Positions 13,756 to 40,973 of a stretch of 64,000 bases of DNA are shown piece after piece (position 1 is the first letter of the stretch; every line of letters begins with the position of its first letter). The stretch spans positions 960,001 through 1,024,000 of the forward strand of contig OZ242365.1 in the NCBI GenBank assembly GCA_965208905.1, given 5' to 3'. The notes beneath the pieces are model-generated. The model was not told the DNA's origin. It saw only the letters and a program-made list of their open reading frames with translations, and searched no databases. The DNA is from Nitrosopumilaceae archaeon (GTDB lineage Archaea > Thermoproteota > Nitrososphaeria > Nitrososphaerales > Nitrosopumilaceae). A program made the translations under genes and the position numbers.

Positions 13756-15269
13756 GGTTCCTACTGCAAGCACGGGGGCTCCCGCACCTACAATACATTA
13801 CACGTCACACCAGAGGACGACGGTGTATAGAGCATCTCGTTCCCCGGTCTGTGCTTGACGTTTCTCAGGGGAGCTGATGCAAGAACCCTCCACGTCCAGA
13901 CGCCCCTTAACATGGGTGCTGCCGGTATTGTCCGGCAAGTTTCGTAAGTTTAGTTGGCCATGCCTAGCCCCCGGGCCAAGTTTCTTCAGCCCCACATCCT
14001 CTATGTTTGAGCCCGCATTACAGTCGGCATGATACGTGTAGCCACACTTCTTACACAAGAACCGTCTACCATCCCGGTTGTCCTTATGTGTATAACCGCA
14101 CGAGTAGCACCGTTGGCTTGTATACGCTGCAGCAACCCAAATTATTTCGCCAGTCAACTTGTACGCCAACAGTAATGCCAACAGCCCCCAGCACTGCTCC
14201 AGAATGGCCTTATTGAGACCAGATTTCTGCGCAACGTTTTTGCCGGGTTTTTCTTCCGTACCCTTGGCGGACTTTGCCATGTTTTGTATAGGAAGTTTCT
14301 CAAAGGCGGCATGTGTGGTGCTGTCCGATATAACGCGTGATATTTTATGCGCGGTGGTCTTTCGAATATTTGCAGCTTTGCGTTTGTTCTTGGCAGCCCT
14401 CTTGGCAGCTTTGGCCCACCGTCGGGAGCCGGGCTTACGATTTACACAGTCGGGTTTCTGCCTGCGTGATGCTATCTTTTGTGCCTTAGAGGCTGTTTTT
14501 TCGGCGTTGTTCATGCGGCGTGTCATCTTTTCGGGTACCATTATTACACAGTCAGGTGTGGCCACATTACCAACATTCCGGTCTATACCAATAACAGTCT
14601 GTTCGGTCACGGTTGGCTTCTCATCGGGTATATCACAGGATATGGTAATCCTCCACCCGCCATCCGGTAGTTGAAATAGTTGTGCCGTCTTGTATCGGTA
14701 ATTCAAGACGGGAAACTCCCGCGACAGTTTAACCTCGCCCATCTTGGCTATCTTGATTGTACGTGTATCAGTGAAGCGCGCTTGACCAGTAGTGCCATCA
14801 TGCGTTATCGTCAACGGGATGGAGATGTGACCTCCATATTTCTTAAAGTGCGGTTCACCAAATTCCGCCTTAGGTTTGATGTTGACAGCCTTCAGCCTCT
14901 CTGTTTTCACATATTGGTCATAATGCCTGCCCAAGTCATGTAATATTTGGCGCGTCACCCCGGATATGGACTGACGCATCCAACGCGGACCCGAATGGCT
15001 GCGCAAGTCCGTATACCACGCGCTTATCCTACCACGCGTAGTGTTGACCCTCCCGGTTCGACGGTACTCTTCCTTGAAGGTTTCTAACAGTTTGTTATAC
15101 ACGTACCTGTCCATGCCGGCCTGTCTGGCTAACATCTCCTTCTTGAACCCTTTACGAAATCTAACGCCGAATGTGTATGTGCGTAGTACCATTAGCGTAC
15201 AGTACGGTCTACATGTTTAAAAAGATAGTTGAGATGTGATATATGGCACCCATCCTTGCGGGAGGAACC
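13756..15269 (-). mobile_element. TIR/TSD-bounded tnpB element A
   Basis: TIRs GGTTCCTACTGCAAG (13756-13770) and CTTGCGGGAGGAACC (15255-15269), 13/15 match; flanks GAAATCTA (13748-13755) and GAAATCTG (15270-15277). Confidence 0.85.
13798..15192 (-). CDS. tnpB: TnpB RNA-guided endonuclease
   Basis: HTH N-terminus (RYVYN), RuvC-I GIDRN, RuvC-II FEKL, YTSQRC..C/C..C zinc finger, RuvC-III HADCNA..NI. Confidence 0.95.
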   Translation of the reverse strand: MVLRTYTFGVRFRKGFKKEMLARQAGMDRYVYNKLLETFKEEYRRTGRVNTTRGRISAWYTDLRSHSGPRWMRQSISGVTRQILHDLGRHYDQYVKTERLKAVNIKPKAEFGEPHFKKYGGHISIPLTITHDGTTGQARFTDTRTIKIAKMGEVKLSREFPVLNYRYKTAQLFQLPDGGWRITISCDIPDEKPTVTEQTVIGIDRNVGNVATPDCVIMVPEKMTRRMNNAEKTASKAQKIASRRQKPDCVNRKPGSRRWAKAAKRAAKNKRKAANIRKTTAHKISRVISDSTTHAAFEKLPIQNMAKSAKGTEEKPGKNVAQKSGLNKAILEQCWGLLALLLAYKLTGEIIWVAAAYTSQRCYSCGYTHKDNRDGRRFLCKKCGYTYHADCNAGSNIEDVGLKKLGPGARHGQLNLRNLPDNTGSTHVKGRLDVEGSCISSPEKRQAQTGERDALYTVVLWCDV

Positions 15270-18855: not shown

Positions 18856-19091
18856 AATATCTGAATTTTATGCTGGCATGATTAAAACTTATGCTATTAC
18901 ATGTCATATCATTTCAAAAGTCATATATGTTGCAACAATTAGCAGTATACTAAAAACAACAATTATCACACGGCAGCAGTTCCAAATACGATTGTAATAA
19001 CGTTTACAGGCCGTGTGATTGTACATGTAAAGTAGATGATTGGACATAAATTATGCAAAACTTCCCCTAAAGGTCGTTATGGAATGTAATC

Positions 19092-20753
19092 ATGTCTATT
19101 GTAGACTCTAACTCGAATTTAATTCCGGTAAGGATGTTGACACAATTTGTATACTGCCCTCGCTTGGCTTACTTGGAATGGGTACAGGGCGAGTTTGCGT
19201 ATTCAGCCGATGTGGTTATGGGTACACAAAAACACAAGAATGTTGATACGCCGGCCAAAAAAAGCATGGATGAAAAGCAAGACACAATACATGCAAAGTC
19301 AATACTTGTTTCAGATGAAAAACTTGGTATTATAGCCAAAATAGATATCATGGATATACAGGGAAATGTGGCGATGCCAATAGAGTACAAACGTGGCAAA
19401 GTTCCAGAAAATTCTGCAAAGGCATGGGAAGATCATATGATACAGCTGTGCGCACAGGGGCTCTTGCTGCGTAAGCACAACTATATGTGTACAGAAGGTG
19501 TGATATATTATGTGGCATCTAAACAGCGCATTACAATAAAATTTGATGATATTCTTGTTGCCAAGACGCTGCAAGCAATACATGATATAAAAGAGATGAT
19601 ACAGCAACAAAAGATCCCCCCACCACTGGTGAATTCTCCTAAATGTCCACGATGTTCTCTGGTGGGTATATGCCTGCCGGATGAGACCAGTTTATTGATG
19701 CCGGGCGTACCGACTGTACGCAAAGACCAAGTACGTAGATTATATCCAATTCGAAATGATGCAGTTCCAGTATATGTTCAGGAGCAAGGAGCCTACGTGT
19801 CCCTATCTGGTGATAATATTGTAGTAAAAAGACAGAGTGGAGATAAACAAAAGATTCGATTAATTGACATATCTGCGCTAGTATTATTTGGAAATGTACA
19901 GGCAAGCACTCAGGCGATACGGACTTTATGTAATCGAGGTATACCAATATGCTACCTTAGTTATGGTGGATGGTTTTACGGACTAACTACTGGCTCTACA
20001 AGCCGAAATGTGGACTTGCGCATACACCAACATAACACCTACAAGAGCAAGTCACTTCTTTTGAATATTGCTCGTGAAATTGTGTCAGGCAAAATTAAAA
20101 ATTGCGCAACACTACTTAGACGTAATGGGAAGCCACAACCAAAATCAGTCTTAGATGAAATGTGTACACTTGCACAAAAATCAAAAACTGCTAAAAACTA
20201 CAATACGCTCTTGGGTTTGGAGGGGCTGGCGGCACGTCTGTACTTTGGAGCATTTCAGACAATGCTGCGAGGCGATATGAATACTTTTTACTTTCAGGAA
20301 CGAAATCGACGGCCGCCCAAGGATCCTGTAAATACAATATTGTCTTTTTTGTACGCTCTGCTGACACGTGAAATGACCACTACTGTATCTCTGGTGGGCT
20401 TTGATGTGTATTTGGGGTTTTTGCACACGCCCCACCATGGGCGGCCCTCACTTGCTCTGGACTTAATTGAAGAATTTCGACCCTTAATAGCAGATTCGGT
20501 ATGTATTTCAATAATAAATAATGGCGTGGTGTCAAAGTCAGATTTTATAATTACACCATTTGGTGTAAATTTGAACGCAGATGGGCGGCGCAAGGTAATT
20601 GAGGCATTTGAAAACAGGTTAAATTCAACAATTCATCATAAATTACTTGGATATTCTGCCAGTTATAGACGAATAATGGAGACGCAAGCCAGGCTTTTAG
20701 CGCGACACATATCTGGTGAAATCCCTGCATATCCGCCCTTCAGGACCCGCTAA
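19092..20753 (+). CDS. cas4-cas1: Cas4-Cas1 fusion
   Basis: YCPR, KID, EYKRG, QLCAQ, C..CSL...C (Cas4); GLEG..AR.YF, RNRRPPKDPVN, LALDLIEEFRP (Cas1). Confidence 0.97.
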   Translation: MSIVDSNSNLIPVRMLTQFVYCPRLAYLEWVQGEFAYSADVVMGTQKHKNVDTPAKKSMDEKQDTIHAKSILVSDEKLGIIAKIDIMDIQGNVAMPIEYKRGKVPENSAKAWEDHMIQLCAQGLLLRKHNYMCTEGVIYYVASKQRITIKFDDILVAKTLQAIHDIKEMIQQQKIPPPLVNSPKCPRCSLVGICLPDETSLLMPGVPTVRKDQVRRLYPIRNDAVPVYVQEQGAYVSLSGDNIVVKRQSGDKQKIRLIDISALVLFGNVQASTQAIRTLCNRGIPICYLSYGGWFYGLTTGSTSRNVDLRIHQHNTYKSKSLLLNIAREIVSGKIKNCATLLRRNGKPQPKSVLDEMCTLAQKSKTAKNYNTLLGLEGLAARLYFGAFQTMLRGDMNTFYFQERNRRPPKDPVNTILSFLYALLTREMTTTVSLVGFDVYLGFLHTPHHGRPSLALDLIEEFRPLIADSVCISIINNGVVSKSDFIITPFGVNLNADGRRKVIEAFENRLNSTIHHKLLGYSASYRRIMETQARLLARHISGEIPAYPPFRTR

Positions 20754-37396: not shown

Positions 37397-38410
37397 TTGA
37401 ATATATCCCGCACCCATCTGATGGCCGCATCCATAGGAGTGTCGTTTGTCATATTTGCCCTTCTTATAACGCCACATAGTTCTACTGCAGTAACTGAGCA
37501 AACATTTGTTACTCATTCAGGCGCCGTAATAAGTACCACCGGCGAGGTACTAGACCCACTATACACAGAAGCGACATTTGAGTTTGACCCAGACAAGTTC
37601 TTGCGCAACTTTGAGTATGGCCGCGTAACCATACAGCCGGATGGCACCACCCTACGCGAATACACTATAATAGCTCAGGATGACCAGATACAAGAGATAT
37701 CGCCCGGCGTATTCTATAACGTGTGGACCTATAATGGGACTGTACCTGGCCCAACCATACGTGCTACCGAGGGCGATACAGTACGAATACACTTTATCAA
37801 TCAGGGCTCAAAACAACACACCATGCACTTTCACGGCATACATCCTGCAGAGATGGATGGCGTCTTTGAGATTGTAGGTCCCAACGGTGGGCAGTTCACA
37901 TACGAGTTTGAGGCCGGACCCGTCGGAGTCCACCCGTACCACTGCCATGTTATGCCCCTTGAAGAGCATATAATACATGGACTGTATGGTGTCTTTATTG
38001 TAGACCCTATACAAGGCAGGCCAGCTGCAGATGAGATGGTCATGGTACTGAACGGCTTTGATACTGACTTTGATGGCGAGAACAACTTTTATGCTGCAAA
38101 TACCATCCCCTTCTATTACCAACATCACCCAATACAGATATCACTAAATCAACTAATACGAATATACGCAGTAAACATGGTGGAGTTTGATCCCATAAAC
38201 AACTTTCACCTACACGGAAACCTATACCACTACTACCCCACAGGTACTGATACTGTTCCATCCACATACACAGACATGATCACGCTATCCCAGACTGAGC
38301 GTGGGATACTAGAATTCTACTACTCCTATCCGGGCCAGTATGTATTTCACGCACACAAAGTAGAGTTCTCTGAGAAGGGCTGGGTTGGAACATTTCTGGT
38401 CTTAGATTGA
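37397..38410 (+). CDS. Two-domain multicopper oxidase
   Basis: HTMHFHG, YHCH...HIIHGL, FHLHG, FHAH; N-terminal membrane/signal segment. Confidence 0.92.
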   Translation: MNISRTHLMAASIGVSFVIFALLITPHSSTAVTEQTFVTHSGAVISTTGEVLDPLYTEATFEFDPDKFLRNFEYGRVTIQPDGTTLREYTIIAQDDQIQEISPGVFYNVWTYNGTVPGPTIRATEGDTVRIHFINQGSKQHTMHFHGIHPAEMDGVFEIVGPNGGQFTYEFEAGPVGVHPYHCHVMPLEEHIIHGLYGVFIVDPIQGRPAADEMVMVLNGFDTDFDGENNFYAANTIPFYYQHHPIQISLNQLIRIYAVNMVEFDPINNFHLHGNLYHYYPTGTDTVPSTYTDMITLSQTERGILEFYYSYPGQYVFHAHKVEFSEKGWVGTFLVLD

Positions 38411-39540
38411 GCCCTAAAACACTGGCAGGCGCCATCATACCATTCATACTGATTACCATACTTGTCATATACATAACAGGCCCCGGCTCAGACTATATCA
38501 TAATAGGTACACCACTACCTGAAGTGACACTAGAACGTATAGATTTTGTAGAGAATGAAATACAAGTTACCATACGAAATACAGGCCCAATACCCGTACA
38601 GGTAGTCCAAGCAGACGTAAATGACAGAATACAACCATCTGCTATAGAACCTGATGGAAGTTTAGAACGGTTCGAGACAGCATTGGTTCGCATACCATTC
38701 TTCTGGAATGAAGCCGAACCATACAATCTAGGCATAACCATACATGATGGTACGCGCTTTGAGAGGGAAGTAGCTGCTGCCTCGCCAGCCGTCACACCCG
38801 ACATTCAGACAACGACAAAATTTGCACTGGCAGGCGTATACATAGGTGTAATACCTGTATTCATAGGACTATTGTGGCTGCCCTTCATACGAAAATTAGA
38901 CTCTAAAAAATTGGGATTTTTTCTGGCCATCACAGTGGGCCTCTTGATATTTTTGGGAATTGATGCCATACAAGAGGCCCTTGAGGTATCAAAAGAATCT
39001 CTGGCAGGCTCCATCAACGGACCATTACTGATACTGGTTGCAGCATCGGGCGCATTTCTTGTATTGCAGTATATATCCGGACGATTCTCATCACATCGCA
39101 CAAAGATAACGGCAGCCATTCTAGTCTCCATCGGTATAGGTTTACACAACTTTGGTGAAGGGTTGGCGTTGGGGGCCGCGCTAAATTTAGGCTCGGTCGC
39201 ATTCTCTGCATCTTTGATGGTCGGCTTTGCCATACACAACACCACCGAAGGAGTGGCCATAGCCTCACCACTATCCAGACAAAAGAACATACTGCCAAAA
39301 TTAATCATATTAGGCATGGTGGCAGGCGCTCCAGCCATACTTGGCACATGGGCCGGCGGCTTTGCATACTCGCCCATTTTTATAGTAGCATTTTTGGCGG
39401 CGGGGGCTGGCGCAATATTTCAGGTTGCAATCGCAATATCTCAATGGATGTTAAAAGATAACACATATCACTCATATCAGATATGTGGAGGCATATTCTT
39501 GGGTATGATAATCATGTATGCAACTGGTATACTGGCATAG
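38407..39540 (+). CDS. ZIP family divalent metal transporter
   Basis: GLHNFGEGLALG and HNTTEG signature helices, multiple TM segments. Confidence 0.93.
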   Translation: MSPKTLAGAIIPFILITILVIYITGPGSDYIIIGTPLPEVTLERIDFVENEIQVTIRNTGPIPVQVVQADVNDRIQPSAIEPDGSLERFETALVRIPFFWNEAEPYNLGITIHDGTRFEREVAAASPAVTPDIQTTTKFALAGVYIGVIPVFIGLLWLPFIRKLDSKKLGFFLAITVGLLIFLGIDAIQEALEVSKESLAGSINGPLLILVAASGAFLVLQYISGRFSSHRTKITAAILVSIGIGLHNFGEGLALGAALNLGSVAFSASLMVGFAIHNTTEGVAIASPLSRQKNILPKLIILGMVAGAPAILGTWAGGFAYSPIFIVAFLAAGAGAIFQVAIAISQWMLKDNTYHSYQICGGIFLGMIIMYATGILA

Positions 39541-40124
39541 GTTCCTCCCGCAAGGACGGGTGTTGGTTGATGTGTGTTGGATAATGTTAAATACGTAATT
39601 AAACCGTACTGTATAGTGGCATCAGTAAAAAATAGCAGGGCAGTAACACGTCCATACGCAAAAAATTTGGGCATGCAACACGTGTTTGAGCATGGCAGAA
39701 GGATGGGAAGTTTGGACGCAGCTTACGTCGCAGATTACATTCTGCCATGATGCGAAAGGCATCGGATTTAATTTATGAAAAGTCCCAATTTTTGGGAGTG
39801 GAGGCACTACATATGCGTCCACACAACACATCCAAGTTGTGTGCTGCATGCAGAACCATATTAACTGGAACTTATCATAAAAAAGACTGCACCCACTGCC
39901 GTACAGTTGGCGTAGATCGTGACGTCAACGCAGTGGAGAACATACGGCGAACAAGCGCCGTATCCCGATATGGTTCGTAAGGTTTCGGCCAGTCTGGGCG
40001 AAGTCCGTCGTGGTGTGGATGTAATACTCGATCCCACACCACTCATACAGGGTTGCTGGAGCAACTGGGCCGACAGACTATCCCGCGTGGTGATGTGACA
40101 TCACCCGACTTTGCGGGAGGAACC
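39540..40124 (+). mobile_element. TIR/TSD-bounded non-autonomous element B with internally deleted tnpB
   Basis: Perfect 14-bp TIRs GGTTCCTCCCGCAA (39540-39553) and TTGCGGGAGGAACC (40111-40124); perfect 8-bp TSD CTGGCATA (39532-39539, 40125-40132). Confidence 0.92.
39617..39980 (+). pseudogene. tnpB: tnpB remnant (C-terminal zinc finger plus RuvC-III)
   Basis: PHNTSKLCAAC...CTHC...DRDVNAVENI; most of the gene missing; short out-of-frame N-terminal stub. Confidence 0.85.
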
Positions 40125-40175
40125 CTGGCATAGAATCATGTTTTAATTATATCATATAATCACGTATAGTATAAC

Positions 40176-40973
40176 ATGATAGATACTACCACCAAATTAA
40201 ATGATCATACAGTAAGATATCTGGATTCAAACTCAAACAAACAACCTGTTATACTACTACATGGCCTTGGTGGCTGCTCTGACAAATGGAAGTCTGTCAT
40301 AGATATACTATCTGCATCGTATCGTGTAATCGCACCAGACATCATAGGATATGGCCAAAGTGACAAACCTGTCGTAAACTACACTCCCACATACATGGTA
40401 TCGTTTGTAAAAAAGTTCATTACAGCAATAGATATTGAAAATCCACACATAGTGGGCGCCTCTCTAGGTGGGCAGGTGGCAGTACAATTTGCCGCCCGAT
40501 ATAAACAGTACATGTCAAAATTAGTATTGGTATCTCCTGCCGGCATAATGAAGCGCTCAACTCCTGCCTTGGATCAATATATTATGGCTGCATTATATCC
40601 CCGCGAAAGCAGTGTATCTCACGCCCTGCAACTTATGGAGGGTAGTGAAAGACCGCCATCTCAAACACTCATTCGACTATTCATGACTAACATGAAGCGT
40701 CCCAATGCAAAGATGGCTTTTATGTCTTCACTACTCTGCTTTAAAAATTCCAATACAATACACAGACACCTAAAGAAGGTAACGACTTCCACCTTGCTGG
40801 TATGGGGGGACGATGATCCTATAATCCCAGTATCATATGCTGGCAAGTTTACATCCGTACTACCAAACTGTACATTTACAACAATCCCTAATTGCGGCCA
40901 CACACCCTACGTTCAATATCCAGAACACTTCTGCAAGATACTCTCTGACTTTTTTGCCACACAAAAACACTAA
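40176..40973 (+). CDS. Alpha/beta hydrolase
   Basis: LLHGLGG, GASLGG nucleophile elbow, WGDDD, GHTP. Confidence 0.93.
   Translation: MIDTTTKLNDHTVRYLDSNSNKQPVILLHGLGGCSDKWKSVIDILSASYRVIAPDIIGYGQSDKPVVNYTPTYMVSFVKKFITAIDIENPHIVGASLGGQVAVQFAARYKQYMSKLVLVSPAGIMKRSTPALDQYIMAALYPRESSVSHALQLMEGSERPPSQTLIRLFMTNMKRPNAKMAFMSSLLCFKNSNTIHRHLKKVTTSTLLVWGDDDPIIPVSYAGKFTSVLPNCTFTTIPNCGHTPYVQYPEHFCKILSDFFATQKH

Follow-up and report, generated by a model that had tools for sequence, protein, structure and literature searches.

The stretch of DNA analysed here, 64,000 nucleotides from a Nitrosopumilaceae archaeon (the window; contig OZ242365.1, positions 960,001 to 1,024,000, or G000:C1:960001-1024000 in our numbering of a genome, G000, that is 2.21 Mb long, in one contig and 99.57% complete), contains a short transposable element, B. 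It is inserted exactly at the stop codon of a ZIP-like open reading frame (ORF; 38407-39540, with a weak Pfam Zip match) and 51 bp upstream of an alpha/beta-hydrolase gene. B spans 585 bp (39540-40124; this and the other features of B are given on the forward strand) and is an internal-deletion derivative of a family of elements, here called F, whose sole gene encodes a TnpB-family nuclease. The ZIP-like frame stops in TAG, the G of which is base 1 of the element, as a preliminary description of this DNA had pointed out; the uninterrupted allele has the identical TAG at the end of the frame.

The ends of B are terminal inverted repeats (TIRs) of 26 nt, the left one (39540-39565) beginning GGTTCC and the right one lying at 40099-40124. 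The two arms are complementary at 23 of 26 positions (88%), with the outer 14 nt perfect, and they are flanked by a perfect 8-bp direct repeat, CTGGCATA (39532-39539 and 40125-40132), the target-site duplication (TSD). A ninth base common to both sides, G, opens the TIR on the left but belongs to the flanking DNA at the right end. The preliminary description had called both TIRs and TSD perfect, which is correct for the TSD and too generous for the TIRs. The left-end 23-mer is found at three places in the window, each with a chance expectation of none: at 39540-39562 (+, no mismatch), at 40102-40124 (-, two mismatches) and at 15247-15269 (-, one mismatch). The last of these is the 5′ end of another element, A, and agrees with the 22/23 match first reported; the same end, over 14-27 nt, is also present on a third element, C, outside the window. 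Inside the left end of B, a TATA-like TTAAATA (39587-39593) and a conserved ACCGTACTGTA (39603-39613) precede the TnpB start. Alignment shows this region (39587-39613) to be common to the A, B and F copies, with ACCGTACTGTA just before the start codon in B and upstream of the ATG of A as originally noticed, and to be absent from C, which is a transposase-bearing insertion sequence (IS). From its resemblance to archaeal promoter layout, we regard it as a candidate promoter.

That B is a discrete insertion is apparent from contigs of four public sequencing runs aligned to 39000-40600. The site is occupied in run X1. In run X5, which comes from a different study, a 4590-nt contig covers 39001-39531 and 40125-40600, joined, with 9 and 2 differences in the two flanks; the 593 bp that it skips equal the 585 bp of B plus one 8-bp copy of the duplication. 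Since this contig joins 39531 to 40125, a related population carries the empty site, with a single copy of CTGGCATA after ATA. Contigs of run X10 that lie over the flanks (39001-39540 and 40128-40597; 97-98% identical) extend for ~1.7-2.0 kb into sequence that has no match to B at 90% identity or above, and other sequence may occupy or adjoin the site in that population.

Origin of element B

In BLASTN comparisons with the whole genome, positions 1-172 and 154-585 of B match the opposite ends of a family of ~1615 bp, F. B is composed of F 1-172, the left end with its promoter-like region, joined to F 1185-1616, which comprises the C-terminus of TnpB and the 3′ RNA region; the 5′ piece is 80-91% and the 3′ piece 91-96% identical to F copies. 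The full-length parent whose existence had been anticipated is thus at hand: a search with the intact copy F239554 (239554-241169) finds 12 full-length copies in the genome at 86.7-92.1% identity to the query, one 5′-truncated copy and additional fragments. The description of B as an internally deleted TnpB element is borne out in that B matches both ends of F and lacks the middle. The accompanying statement that only the 3′ end had been retained has to be corrected, as B also keeps 172 bp of the 5′ end, including the TATA-like box and the first ~45 codons of the gene.

Comparison of B with three full F copies places the deletion junction at a short repeat, GCAGAAGG (39695-39702). This repeat, or a near version of it, occurs at F ~165-175 and again at F ~1185-1195, and the two BLAST pieces of B overlap by 19 nt. 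Because the ~1010 bp between the two repeat copies have been lost, B has neither RuvC-I nor RuvC-II. What remains of the TnpB coding region (39696-39980) specifies the zinc ribbon and the RuvC-III motif (DRDVNAVENI); a residual ORF of 77 aa within it (39747-39980) matches the Pfam domain Cas12f1-like_TNB at 35.1 bits. An extra T at 39974/39975, absent from all other copies compared, creates a stop in the residual frame.

With no functional protein, and with both ends and the TSD retained, B has the make-up of a guide-only element resembling a miniature inverted-repeat transposable element, as had been surmised. No further locus in the genome has the same junction, and a single locus aligns end to end with B by BLASTN, so that transposition of the deleted form is not borne out. 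Because the deletion form is single-copy, B may be no more than an inert remnant that was shortened where it stands: slippage between short repeats would have taken the middle out of a full F copy inserted here, and no part of B would be in use today. We take this view seriously and put its chances somewhat below even. The location of the junction within an 8-9-nt repeat, its uniqueness, the frameshifting T, the age of the F copies (87-92% identical to the query copy) and the lack of direct RNA evidence are all in keeping with it, and retention of the guide-RNA end would then be due to chance, since any internal deletion keeps both ends. Several features of the locus argue in the other direction and none of them proves use. 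B has kept the promoter-like 5′ part. Its 3′ piece is 96% identical to that of its best F match, the copy at 945644. Furthermore, a second and independent F-derived short element (626859-627354 in genome coordinates; 496 bp), with a TSD of its own, CATGAGGG, and a TTA motif, retains the 3′ ~460 nt together with a left end of ~35 nt.

The shell and its cargos

Element A (13756-15269, - strand; 1514 bp) has the same left TIR as B, an 8-bp TSD with one mismatch, and a TnpB ORF at 15192-13798. Its family numbers eight full copies in the genome, one IS-interrupted copy and one 355-bp short derivative. Perfect TSDs surround 4/10 A copies, 3/10 have one mismatch and 3/10 have none; among the F copies, 9/13 have perfect 8-bp duplications, 1/13 has a 9-bp duplication with one mismatch and 3/13 have none. 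In the short derivative of A (G000:C1, 539996-540350), A 1-240 is joined to A 1400-1514; its TSD, next to TTG, contains one mismatch, and it retains a 3′ end of only 115 nt, possibly too short for a full scaffold. The interrupted copy (805876-808440, L110) contains an insertion that encodes a 388-aa rve-type (integrase-core) transposase; its left end, too, looks F-like (GGTTCCTCCCGCAAAGTCGGGTT).

The proteins encoded by the two families have little in common. The 464-aa TnpB of A is typical: it scores 161.5 bits with the NCBIfam model guided_TnpB, matches PDB entry 8H1J at E 2.6e-12 and is matched over its whole length by ISDra2-type structures. The F gene is a 522-aa ORF, its product probably being ~505 aa long from the conserved start, and Pfam recognizes in it the TNB domain only (28.3 bits). 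A phmmer search against PDB sequences returned nothing at E <= 0.01, and because this single-sequence search was empty, profile and fold searches were needed. With a profile built from 16 relatives, Cas12f and TnpB chains are recovered (E 1.5e-9), and the top Foldseek matches of the AlphaFold model (mean pLDDT 72) are all Cas12f, TnpB or Fanzor2 structures (E 2e-13; global TM 0.28-0.37). D221, E379, D464 and two Cys pairs (CxxC..CxxC) are invariant across the 16 F-type sequences; the full F copies, unlike B itself, have the complete RuvC triad and zinc ribbon. The F protein is a real TnpB/Cas12f-type protein. Its ORF measures at least 468 aa in 10 of the 12 full copies, and among those 10 the mean pairwise ratio of nonsynonymous to synonymous divergence (dN/dS) is 0.20. 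The clade is small, a word-indexed search of 5.8 billion proteins giving 34 at E <= 1e-5; close relatives come from metagenome-assembled genomes (MAGs) of Cenarchaeum sp. and are annotated only as 'transposase'.

BLASTP between F-type and A-type TnpBs detects no similarity (best E 0.98). The shell is therefore shared and the cargo different, and the preliminary contention that the residual protein of B is unlike the C-terminus of A, the two TnpBs not being close sisters, holds. The same GGTTCC shell carries an A-type TnpB, an F-type TnpB or a transposase, in separate elements; no copy seen here combines transposase and TnpB. A-type TnpBs occur with at least four TIR variants overall, their relatives at 60-87% identity in five sister genomes using at least three other variants. 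F-type TnpBs occur with at least three; in MAGs of other Nitrosopumilaceae, F-like TnpBs that are 33-39% identical have yet other IS6-like TIR variants and 8-9-bp TSDs. Shells and TnpBs are thus incongruent, in agreement with the original idea that one kind of shell has hosted different tnpB cargos. This distribution also shows the association of TnpB with such shells to be old in both clades.

The 15-nt end pattern of the shell has 61 occurrences in the genome, against one for the reversed control. Eight of nine other genomes of the genus also contain it frequently, and none of the 51 genomes searched outside the genus has it more than twice. Element C (926302-927837 in genome coordinates; 1536 bp) has these ends, no TnpB and a frameshifted DDE transposase gene; intact versions of 1.44-1.48 kb with an ORF of 393-396 aa are present in sister genomes, where the same TIR, together with a perfect 8-bp TSD, is found at 11/22 transposase-bearing loci. 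Of two transposases tested against the Pfam model DDE_Tnp_IS240 (cut-off 27), one scored 30.4 bits (L043) and the other 20.1 bits (L047); PF13610 is present in most relatives from the databases. Among NCBIfam models IS6 matches best (E 1.5e-20), at 73.8 bits against a cut-off of 125 and followed by IS1, and the N-terminus resembles a zinc ribbon of the IS1/IS1595 type. Because of this score and this N-terminus, IS6 is only the nearest family, and we describe the shell as probably an IS6/IS240-like DDE insertion sequence in the sense of a nearest-family label, not of proven IS6 membership.

Members of the IS6/IS26 family have inverted repeats starting with GG, generate 8-bp TSDs and form cointegrates. 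The elements described here share with them ends starting with GG, 8-bp duplications, a two-element composite within one TSD and probably a catalytic domain of the DDE_Tnp_IS240 type; they differ in the length of the transposase (~390 aa), in its IS1/IS1595-like zinc ribbon and sub-threshold IS6 score, and in the occurrence of 9-bp TSDs as well. The composite consists of an A copy (924780-926293, - strand) and C, which lie 8 bp apart (AGCGTTGA) within one 8-bp TSD, TTAAACTC; an A end and a C end have therefore been used together in one event. The pair (G000:C1:924772-927845, L041/L089) resembles a composite transposon that was mobilised through the outermost pair of ends. From the shared 14-27-nt ends, the TSD length and this composite, we infer that the DDE transposase of the matching IS moves the shells of A, F and their short derivatives in trans.

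It is worth considering whether B, F and A could instead be ordinary IS200/IS605 elements of the IS1341 group, TnpB-only and moved by a Y1 transposase TnpA, with the TIRs and TSDs being coincidental. The elements are indeed TnpB-only, and the F motif TTAC/ATAC described below resembles the TTAC target of IS608-type elements (PMC13565253). We consider this most improbable. The ends are 23-30-nt inverted repeats in common with a DDE transposase IS, variable 8-9-bp duplications surround most copies, and the empty allele holds exactly one 8-bp copy. IS200/IS605 and IS607 elements are described as having neither TIRs nor TSDs (PMC13565253), and on that ground membership in IS200/IS605 is excluded. 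That family has subterminal hairpins in place of TIRs and moves through single-stranded DNA by means of a Y1 transposase; the Y1 transposase domain PF01797 has no match in this 99.57%-complete genome, the same search being positive in 6/14 control genomes. Mobilisation of the IS605 type was accordingly rejected.

Two further candidates were discarded. Thirteen other DDE_Tnp_IS240-like genes of the genome had no convincing TIRs around them and were dismissed as a partner; they have open frames of 356-501 aa (e.g. 18890-19306, 1337897-1338319 and 1851533-1851955) and may be immobile or domesticated. Larger transposase-bearing loci of 3.1-4.8 kb in another genome (G009) were considered as elements with both transposase and TnpB and turned out to contain IS110-like insertions: four transposase-bearing copies of the shell IS (L121-L124) are interrupted there by IS110-like (DEDD) elements, which in two of the four form an inverted pair. 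The same TIRs bound a chimeric 789-bp element (1047821-1048609), in which one strand carries remnants of a C-type transposase gene and the opposite strand encodes the C-terminal portion of an A-type TnpB. This composition is suggestive of recombination between relatives of the shell.

Structured RNA region at the right end

TnpB processes its own transcript into a guide RNA. In B, a candidate scaffold for such an RNA (omegaRNA) extends from a first stem, ATACGGCG...CGCCGTAT, to the right end of the element (39942-40124), as judged from folding, covariation and synonymous-site suppression. The last 187 nt of B have a minimum free energy (MFE) of -73.1 kcal/mol (z -2.6; 2/200 shuffles fold equally well). 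Synonymous divergence among F copies falls from 0.28 over codons 20-470 to 0.089 over the last 52 codons. Covariation among F copies alone was scant, with 1/57 pairs compensatory, and distant relatives were for this reason added to the alignment, giving 11 sequences of approximately three lineages, the relatives at 33-39% protein identity, with 71% mean column identity. The consensus structure contains 30 pairs, 16 of them compensatory. Pairing is possible in 94.5% of cells, as opposed to 75.0% in shuffles (0/500 reach the observed value) and 34-41% when partners are slid, the structure having been derived from the same alignment on which pairing was scored. A further hairpin (GTTGC/GCAAC in F) appears by eye to be kept with different sequences; it shows a one-column misregister in one subgroup and was excluded from the count. 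The conserved structure looked for at the 3′ end of B is thus present. B has no disruptive changes in the paired columns, a circumstance that sits uneasily with the notion of a decaying relic.

The structure ends in a stem-loop (40081-40118) in which TCCCGC (40081-40086) pairs with GCGGGA (40113-40118) and encloses the palindrome GGTGATGT-G-ACATCACC (40089-40105). Both palindrome and possible pairing had been noted at first inspection, and the pairing is present in the MFE and the consensus folds. The 3′ arm of this last stem-loop is the inverted repeat itself. The same arrangement, with the right TIR as 3′ arm, is found in B, in one full F copy and in three distant subfamilies; the 5′ arm is family-specific and matches the family's own repeat, the last 5-6 nt are free, and single-sequence z values are modest (-0.5 to -2.6). 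A precedent is found among the eukaryotic and viral relatives of TnpB, as in the RNAs of insect-virus Fanzor1 the TIR is reported to be part of the last scaffold stem (Yoon et al. 2023, 10.1101/2023.08.09.552727).

The resemblance to Fanzor extends to the whole element. As described for Fanzor1 and Fanzor2 (10.1101/2023.08.09.552727, PMC13565253), a TnpB-family nuclease is the sole gene of a non-autonomous transposon with TIRs and TSDs, and the final stem-loop of the guide scaffold, known here from a predicted fold, is made in part by the TIR. Fanzor elements are, however, eukaryotic or viral, in contrast to the archaeal host of B. In addition, their TSDs are given as short and fixed (TA, TTAA, TTAN) and as part of the TAM, the motif recognized beside the target, or of the scaffold. 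The TSDs described here are 8-9 bp long and variable; they would lie outside the TAM and provide the initial bases of the guide.

The motif beside the target duplication

The accepted selfish role of TnpB is to re-cut the scarless empty site that is left by IS605/IS607 excision. This role depends on a transposase that always inserts beside the transposon-adjacent motif (TAM) recognized by the nuclease. At the B site, ATA lies directly 5′ of the left TSD copy, with C as the first duplicated base (ATA(C), 39529-39532), and the statistics of F left ends point to a TAM-like motif. The three bases abutting the TSD are TTA in 8 of 16 F left ends, ATA in 6, CTA in 1 and TAC in 1. WTA (W, A or T) is therefore present in 14/16 at fixed distance, and in 15/16 when the copy with the 9-bp duplication is anchored at its TSD (TAC becoming TTA); the duplication begins with C in 12 cases and with T in 4. 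With a genome background of 3.9% for WTA, 15/16 corresponds to a binomial p of 1e-20, a value that, like the others given here, overstates the independence of copies that are kin. A left ends (n = 9) have TTG in 6, TTA in 2 and TTT in 1, or TTD (D, A, G or T) in 9/9 against a background of 5.5%, and the base next to the TSD differs between the two families (Fisher 5e-4). No matching motif was seen by eye on the right side of the elements.

Relatives in other shells were scored in the same manner. Eleven F-like loci, one with ends but no TSD and two cut by contig ends, yielded eight with TSD, which have TTA (5), ATA (2) and GCA (1). Nineteen A-type loci, six without a readable left end, yielded 13, with TTG (6), TTA (3), TCA (2), TTC (1) and TGT (1). 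A multi-copy control family (G007) with nearly identical ends and the same 14-nt TIR, in which no TnpB was detected (the family is partly masked with N, and its lack of a TnpB is presumed), has WTA in 3/20 ends of one type and 0/19 of the other, and TTD in 4/20 and 3/19; the difference in WTA from F gives Fisher values of 4e-6 and 5e-9. Finally, the 11 transposase-bearing copies with TSDs have TTT, TTC, TGG, TTG, CCC, TGC, GTG, TTA, TTA, TTC and GCT, hence WTA in 2/11 and TTN in 6/11. The motif, WTA(Y) (Y, C or T) in one clade and mostly TTG in the other, appears to follow the TnpB clade across shells and to be largely missing from transposase-only relatives, which fits a TAM.

One could argue that the motif reflects the target preference of the DDE transposase itself and is unconnected with TnpB. 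The TAM of known TnpB systems is the same as the target motif of the transposase (PMC13565253), and by eye TTN lies next to the left TSD in 6/11 transposase-only copies as compared with 2/11 on the other side. Yet the last base of the motif is A in 15/16 F copies and G in 6/9 A copies despite the same left TIR, WTA is kept in 7/8 F-like relatives whose shells have different TIRs, and the scarcity of WTA in the control family would be hard to account for, as would a one-sided motif beside near-symmetrical F TIRs. We think this alternative unlikely. The transposase may have a weak preference for T, with the strict, clade-specific motif probably going with TnpB.

The empty allele gives the motif a possible significance. 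There, ATA is directly followed by the TSD and the right flank; at the occupied site, only 8-9 nt match after the left motif, and the right TSD copy is preceded by ...AACC. The guide of the B omegaRNA, predicted from TnpB biology to be ~20 nt long, would consist of the right TSD copy and adjoining flank (40125-40144). Sequence matching this guide is found directly 3′ of WTA(Y) in the empty allele, and the F TnpB could therefore cut the empty allele of the B site. This is the TAM-then-target logic known for the empty sites of IS605 TnpB (PMC13565253; Meers et al. 2023), here on an element that duplicates its target.

These considerations lead us to the following model. F elements would be units of ~1.6 kb with one gene, for a divergent TnpB nuclease, enclosed in IS6/IS240-like TIRs and bordered by TSDs of 8 bp, rarely 9 bp, and the DDE transposase of the matching IS would move their shells in trans. 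Deletion between two short repeats would have removed RuvC-I and RuvC-II from one of them, leaving the promoter-like 5′ end and the part specifying the structured 3′ RNA. Transcription from the TATA-like/ACCGTACTGTA region would traverse the scaffold and continue into the flank. The 3′ RNA would, by analogy with TnpB/omegaRNA and Fanzor, be a guide scaffold, with the guide starting right after the right end; WTA(Y) would be the TAM, and the duplication would provide the first guide bases. TnpB made from intact F copies would load the RNA of B and cut the empty allele, thus favouring retention or homing of B. As a whole, the statement that B is a non-autonomous, internally deleted member of F, in a trans-mobilised IS6-like shell and with a guide-RNA end usable by the F TnpB, seems to us probable. 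Its structural part is close to certain. That B carries a guide RNA used in trans is plausible, and its actual use by the F TnpB is put forward tentatively, at rather less than an even chance.

A number of observations weigh against this model. The only transposase with the same TIRs in this genome is the frameshifted one of C, and the IS6 assignment of the shell suffers from the low score and the IS1/IS1595-like N-terminus mentioned above. The deletion junction of B is single. An Rfam scan of 39400-40300 at E <= 10 found no omegaRNA family, returning two sub-threshold chance matches (t44 and snR36). The sole RNA evidence, one 393-nt contig from the metatranscriptome of run X16 that covers 39726-40113 at ~93% identity, derives from another F copy, shows no transcript ends and may represent DNA carry-over or plain mRNA. 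Its depth is 24.5, compared with 2.8 for the neighbouring gene; since there are ~13 genomic copies and DNA may have been carried over, and since contigs cannot show ends, it is uninformative about a small RNA. As regards the motif, the A-type relatives are not uniform, the control family is incompletely readable, the copies are not independent, and TTN in over half of the transposase-bearing copies could mean that part of the motif is a transposase preference.

Elements of this general kind have been described. Altae-Tran et al. (PNAS 2023, PMC10691335) linked prokaryotic TnpBs to six DDE-transposase branches (DDE-1 to DDE-6), with inverted repeats and with solo TnpB copies whose ends are nearly identical to those of transposase-bearing elements, so that the TnpB-in-DDE-shell architecture as such is already known. 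As in those branches, TnpB lies inside an inverted-repeat transposon with its 3′ end near the transposon end; unlike in them, the two genes are never combined in one element here. For these branches the text of that source names only IS630 (DDE-6), and its supplement mentions IS6 solely within a list of profile names; an IS6-like partner or the present archaeal clades may be among the six. Its main text, in which the phrase 'target site' does not occur, is silent on a TAM abutting a variable TSD. The literature searched contained no paper linking TnpB to the IS6 family or to IS1595. Similarities also exist with IS1341-group elements and with their derivatives, the palindrome-associated transposable elements (PATE), which retain omegaRNAs (Meers et al. 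2023; Dyall-Smith et al. 2011, PMC3119063). The former are TnpB-only and non-autonomous, and core deletions between short repeats turn them into end-only derivatives; that guide-only IS605 derivatives are served in trans by the TnpB of other copies was proposed in the preprint of Meers et al. Against this background, the IS6-like partner in these archaea and the presence of two unrelated TnpB clades in such shells appear to be new, as do a variable TSD as presumed guide seed and a TAM-like motif tied to the cargo and not to the shell.

What emerges is that two unrelated TnpB clades ride DDE shells with variable 8-9-bp TSDs, whose TnpB-free relatives show little site preference, and that nearly every TnpB-bearing copy nonetheless adjoins a clade-specific TAM-like motif. 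This near-universal adjacency could be due to targeting at insertion or to long-term survivorship of TnpB-defended copies. It is tempting to speculate that TAM recognition by the cargo decides where the IS6-like shell ends up, with the variable TSD becoming the guide seed: TnpB might place an 8-9-bp staggered cut 3′ of the TAM at integration, or homing might be so effective that only TAM-adjacent insertions persist. We give this idea a low probability. If it were true, prokaryotes would provide a natural case of an RNA-guided nuclease being coupled to a DDE transposon that has a transposase of little target preference. If our model is right, these elements would offer a system for asking whether TnpB can bias where a DDE transposon integrates or whether it is retained, how a guide functions with a target duplication as its seed, and how Fanzor-like architectures arise outside eukaryotes. 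It also predicts TAMs for two compact archaeal nucleases, of which that of F (~505-522 aa) belongs to a rare, divergent clade. The F and A copies are without exception old. The youngest family available for a comparison of targeting with survivorship, 97-98.6% identical, has only 4 copies (TTG in 3, TTC in 1), too few for the purpose. The TnpB complement of this genome extends well beyond the two families discussed, since a tblastn search with the A protein picked up over 40 other TnpB-like loci that are 23-34% identical to it, a number of them represented by several similar copies.

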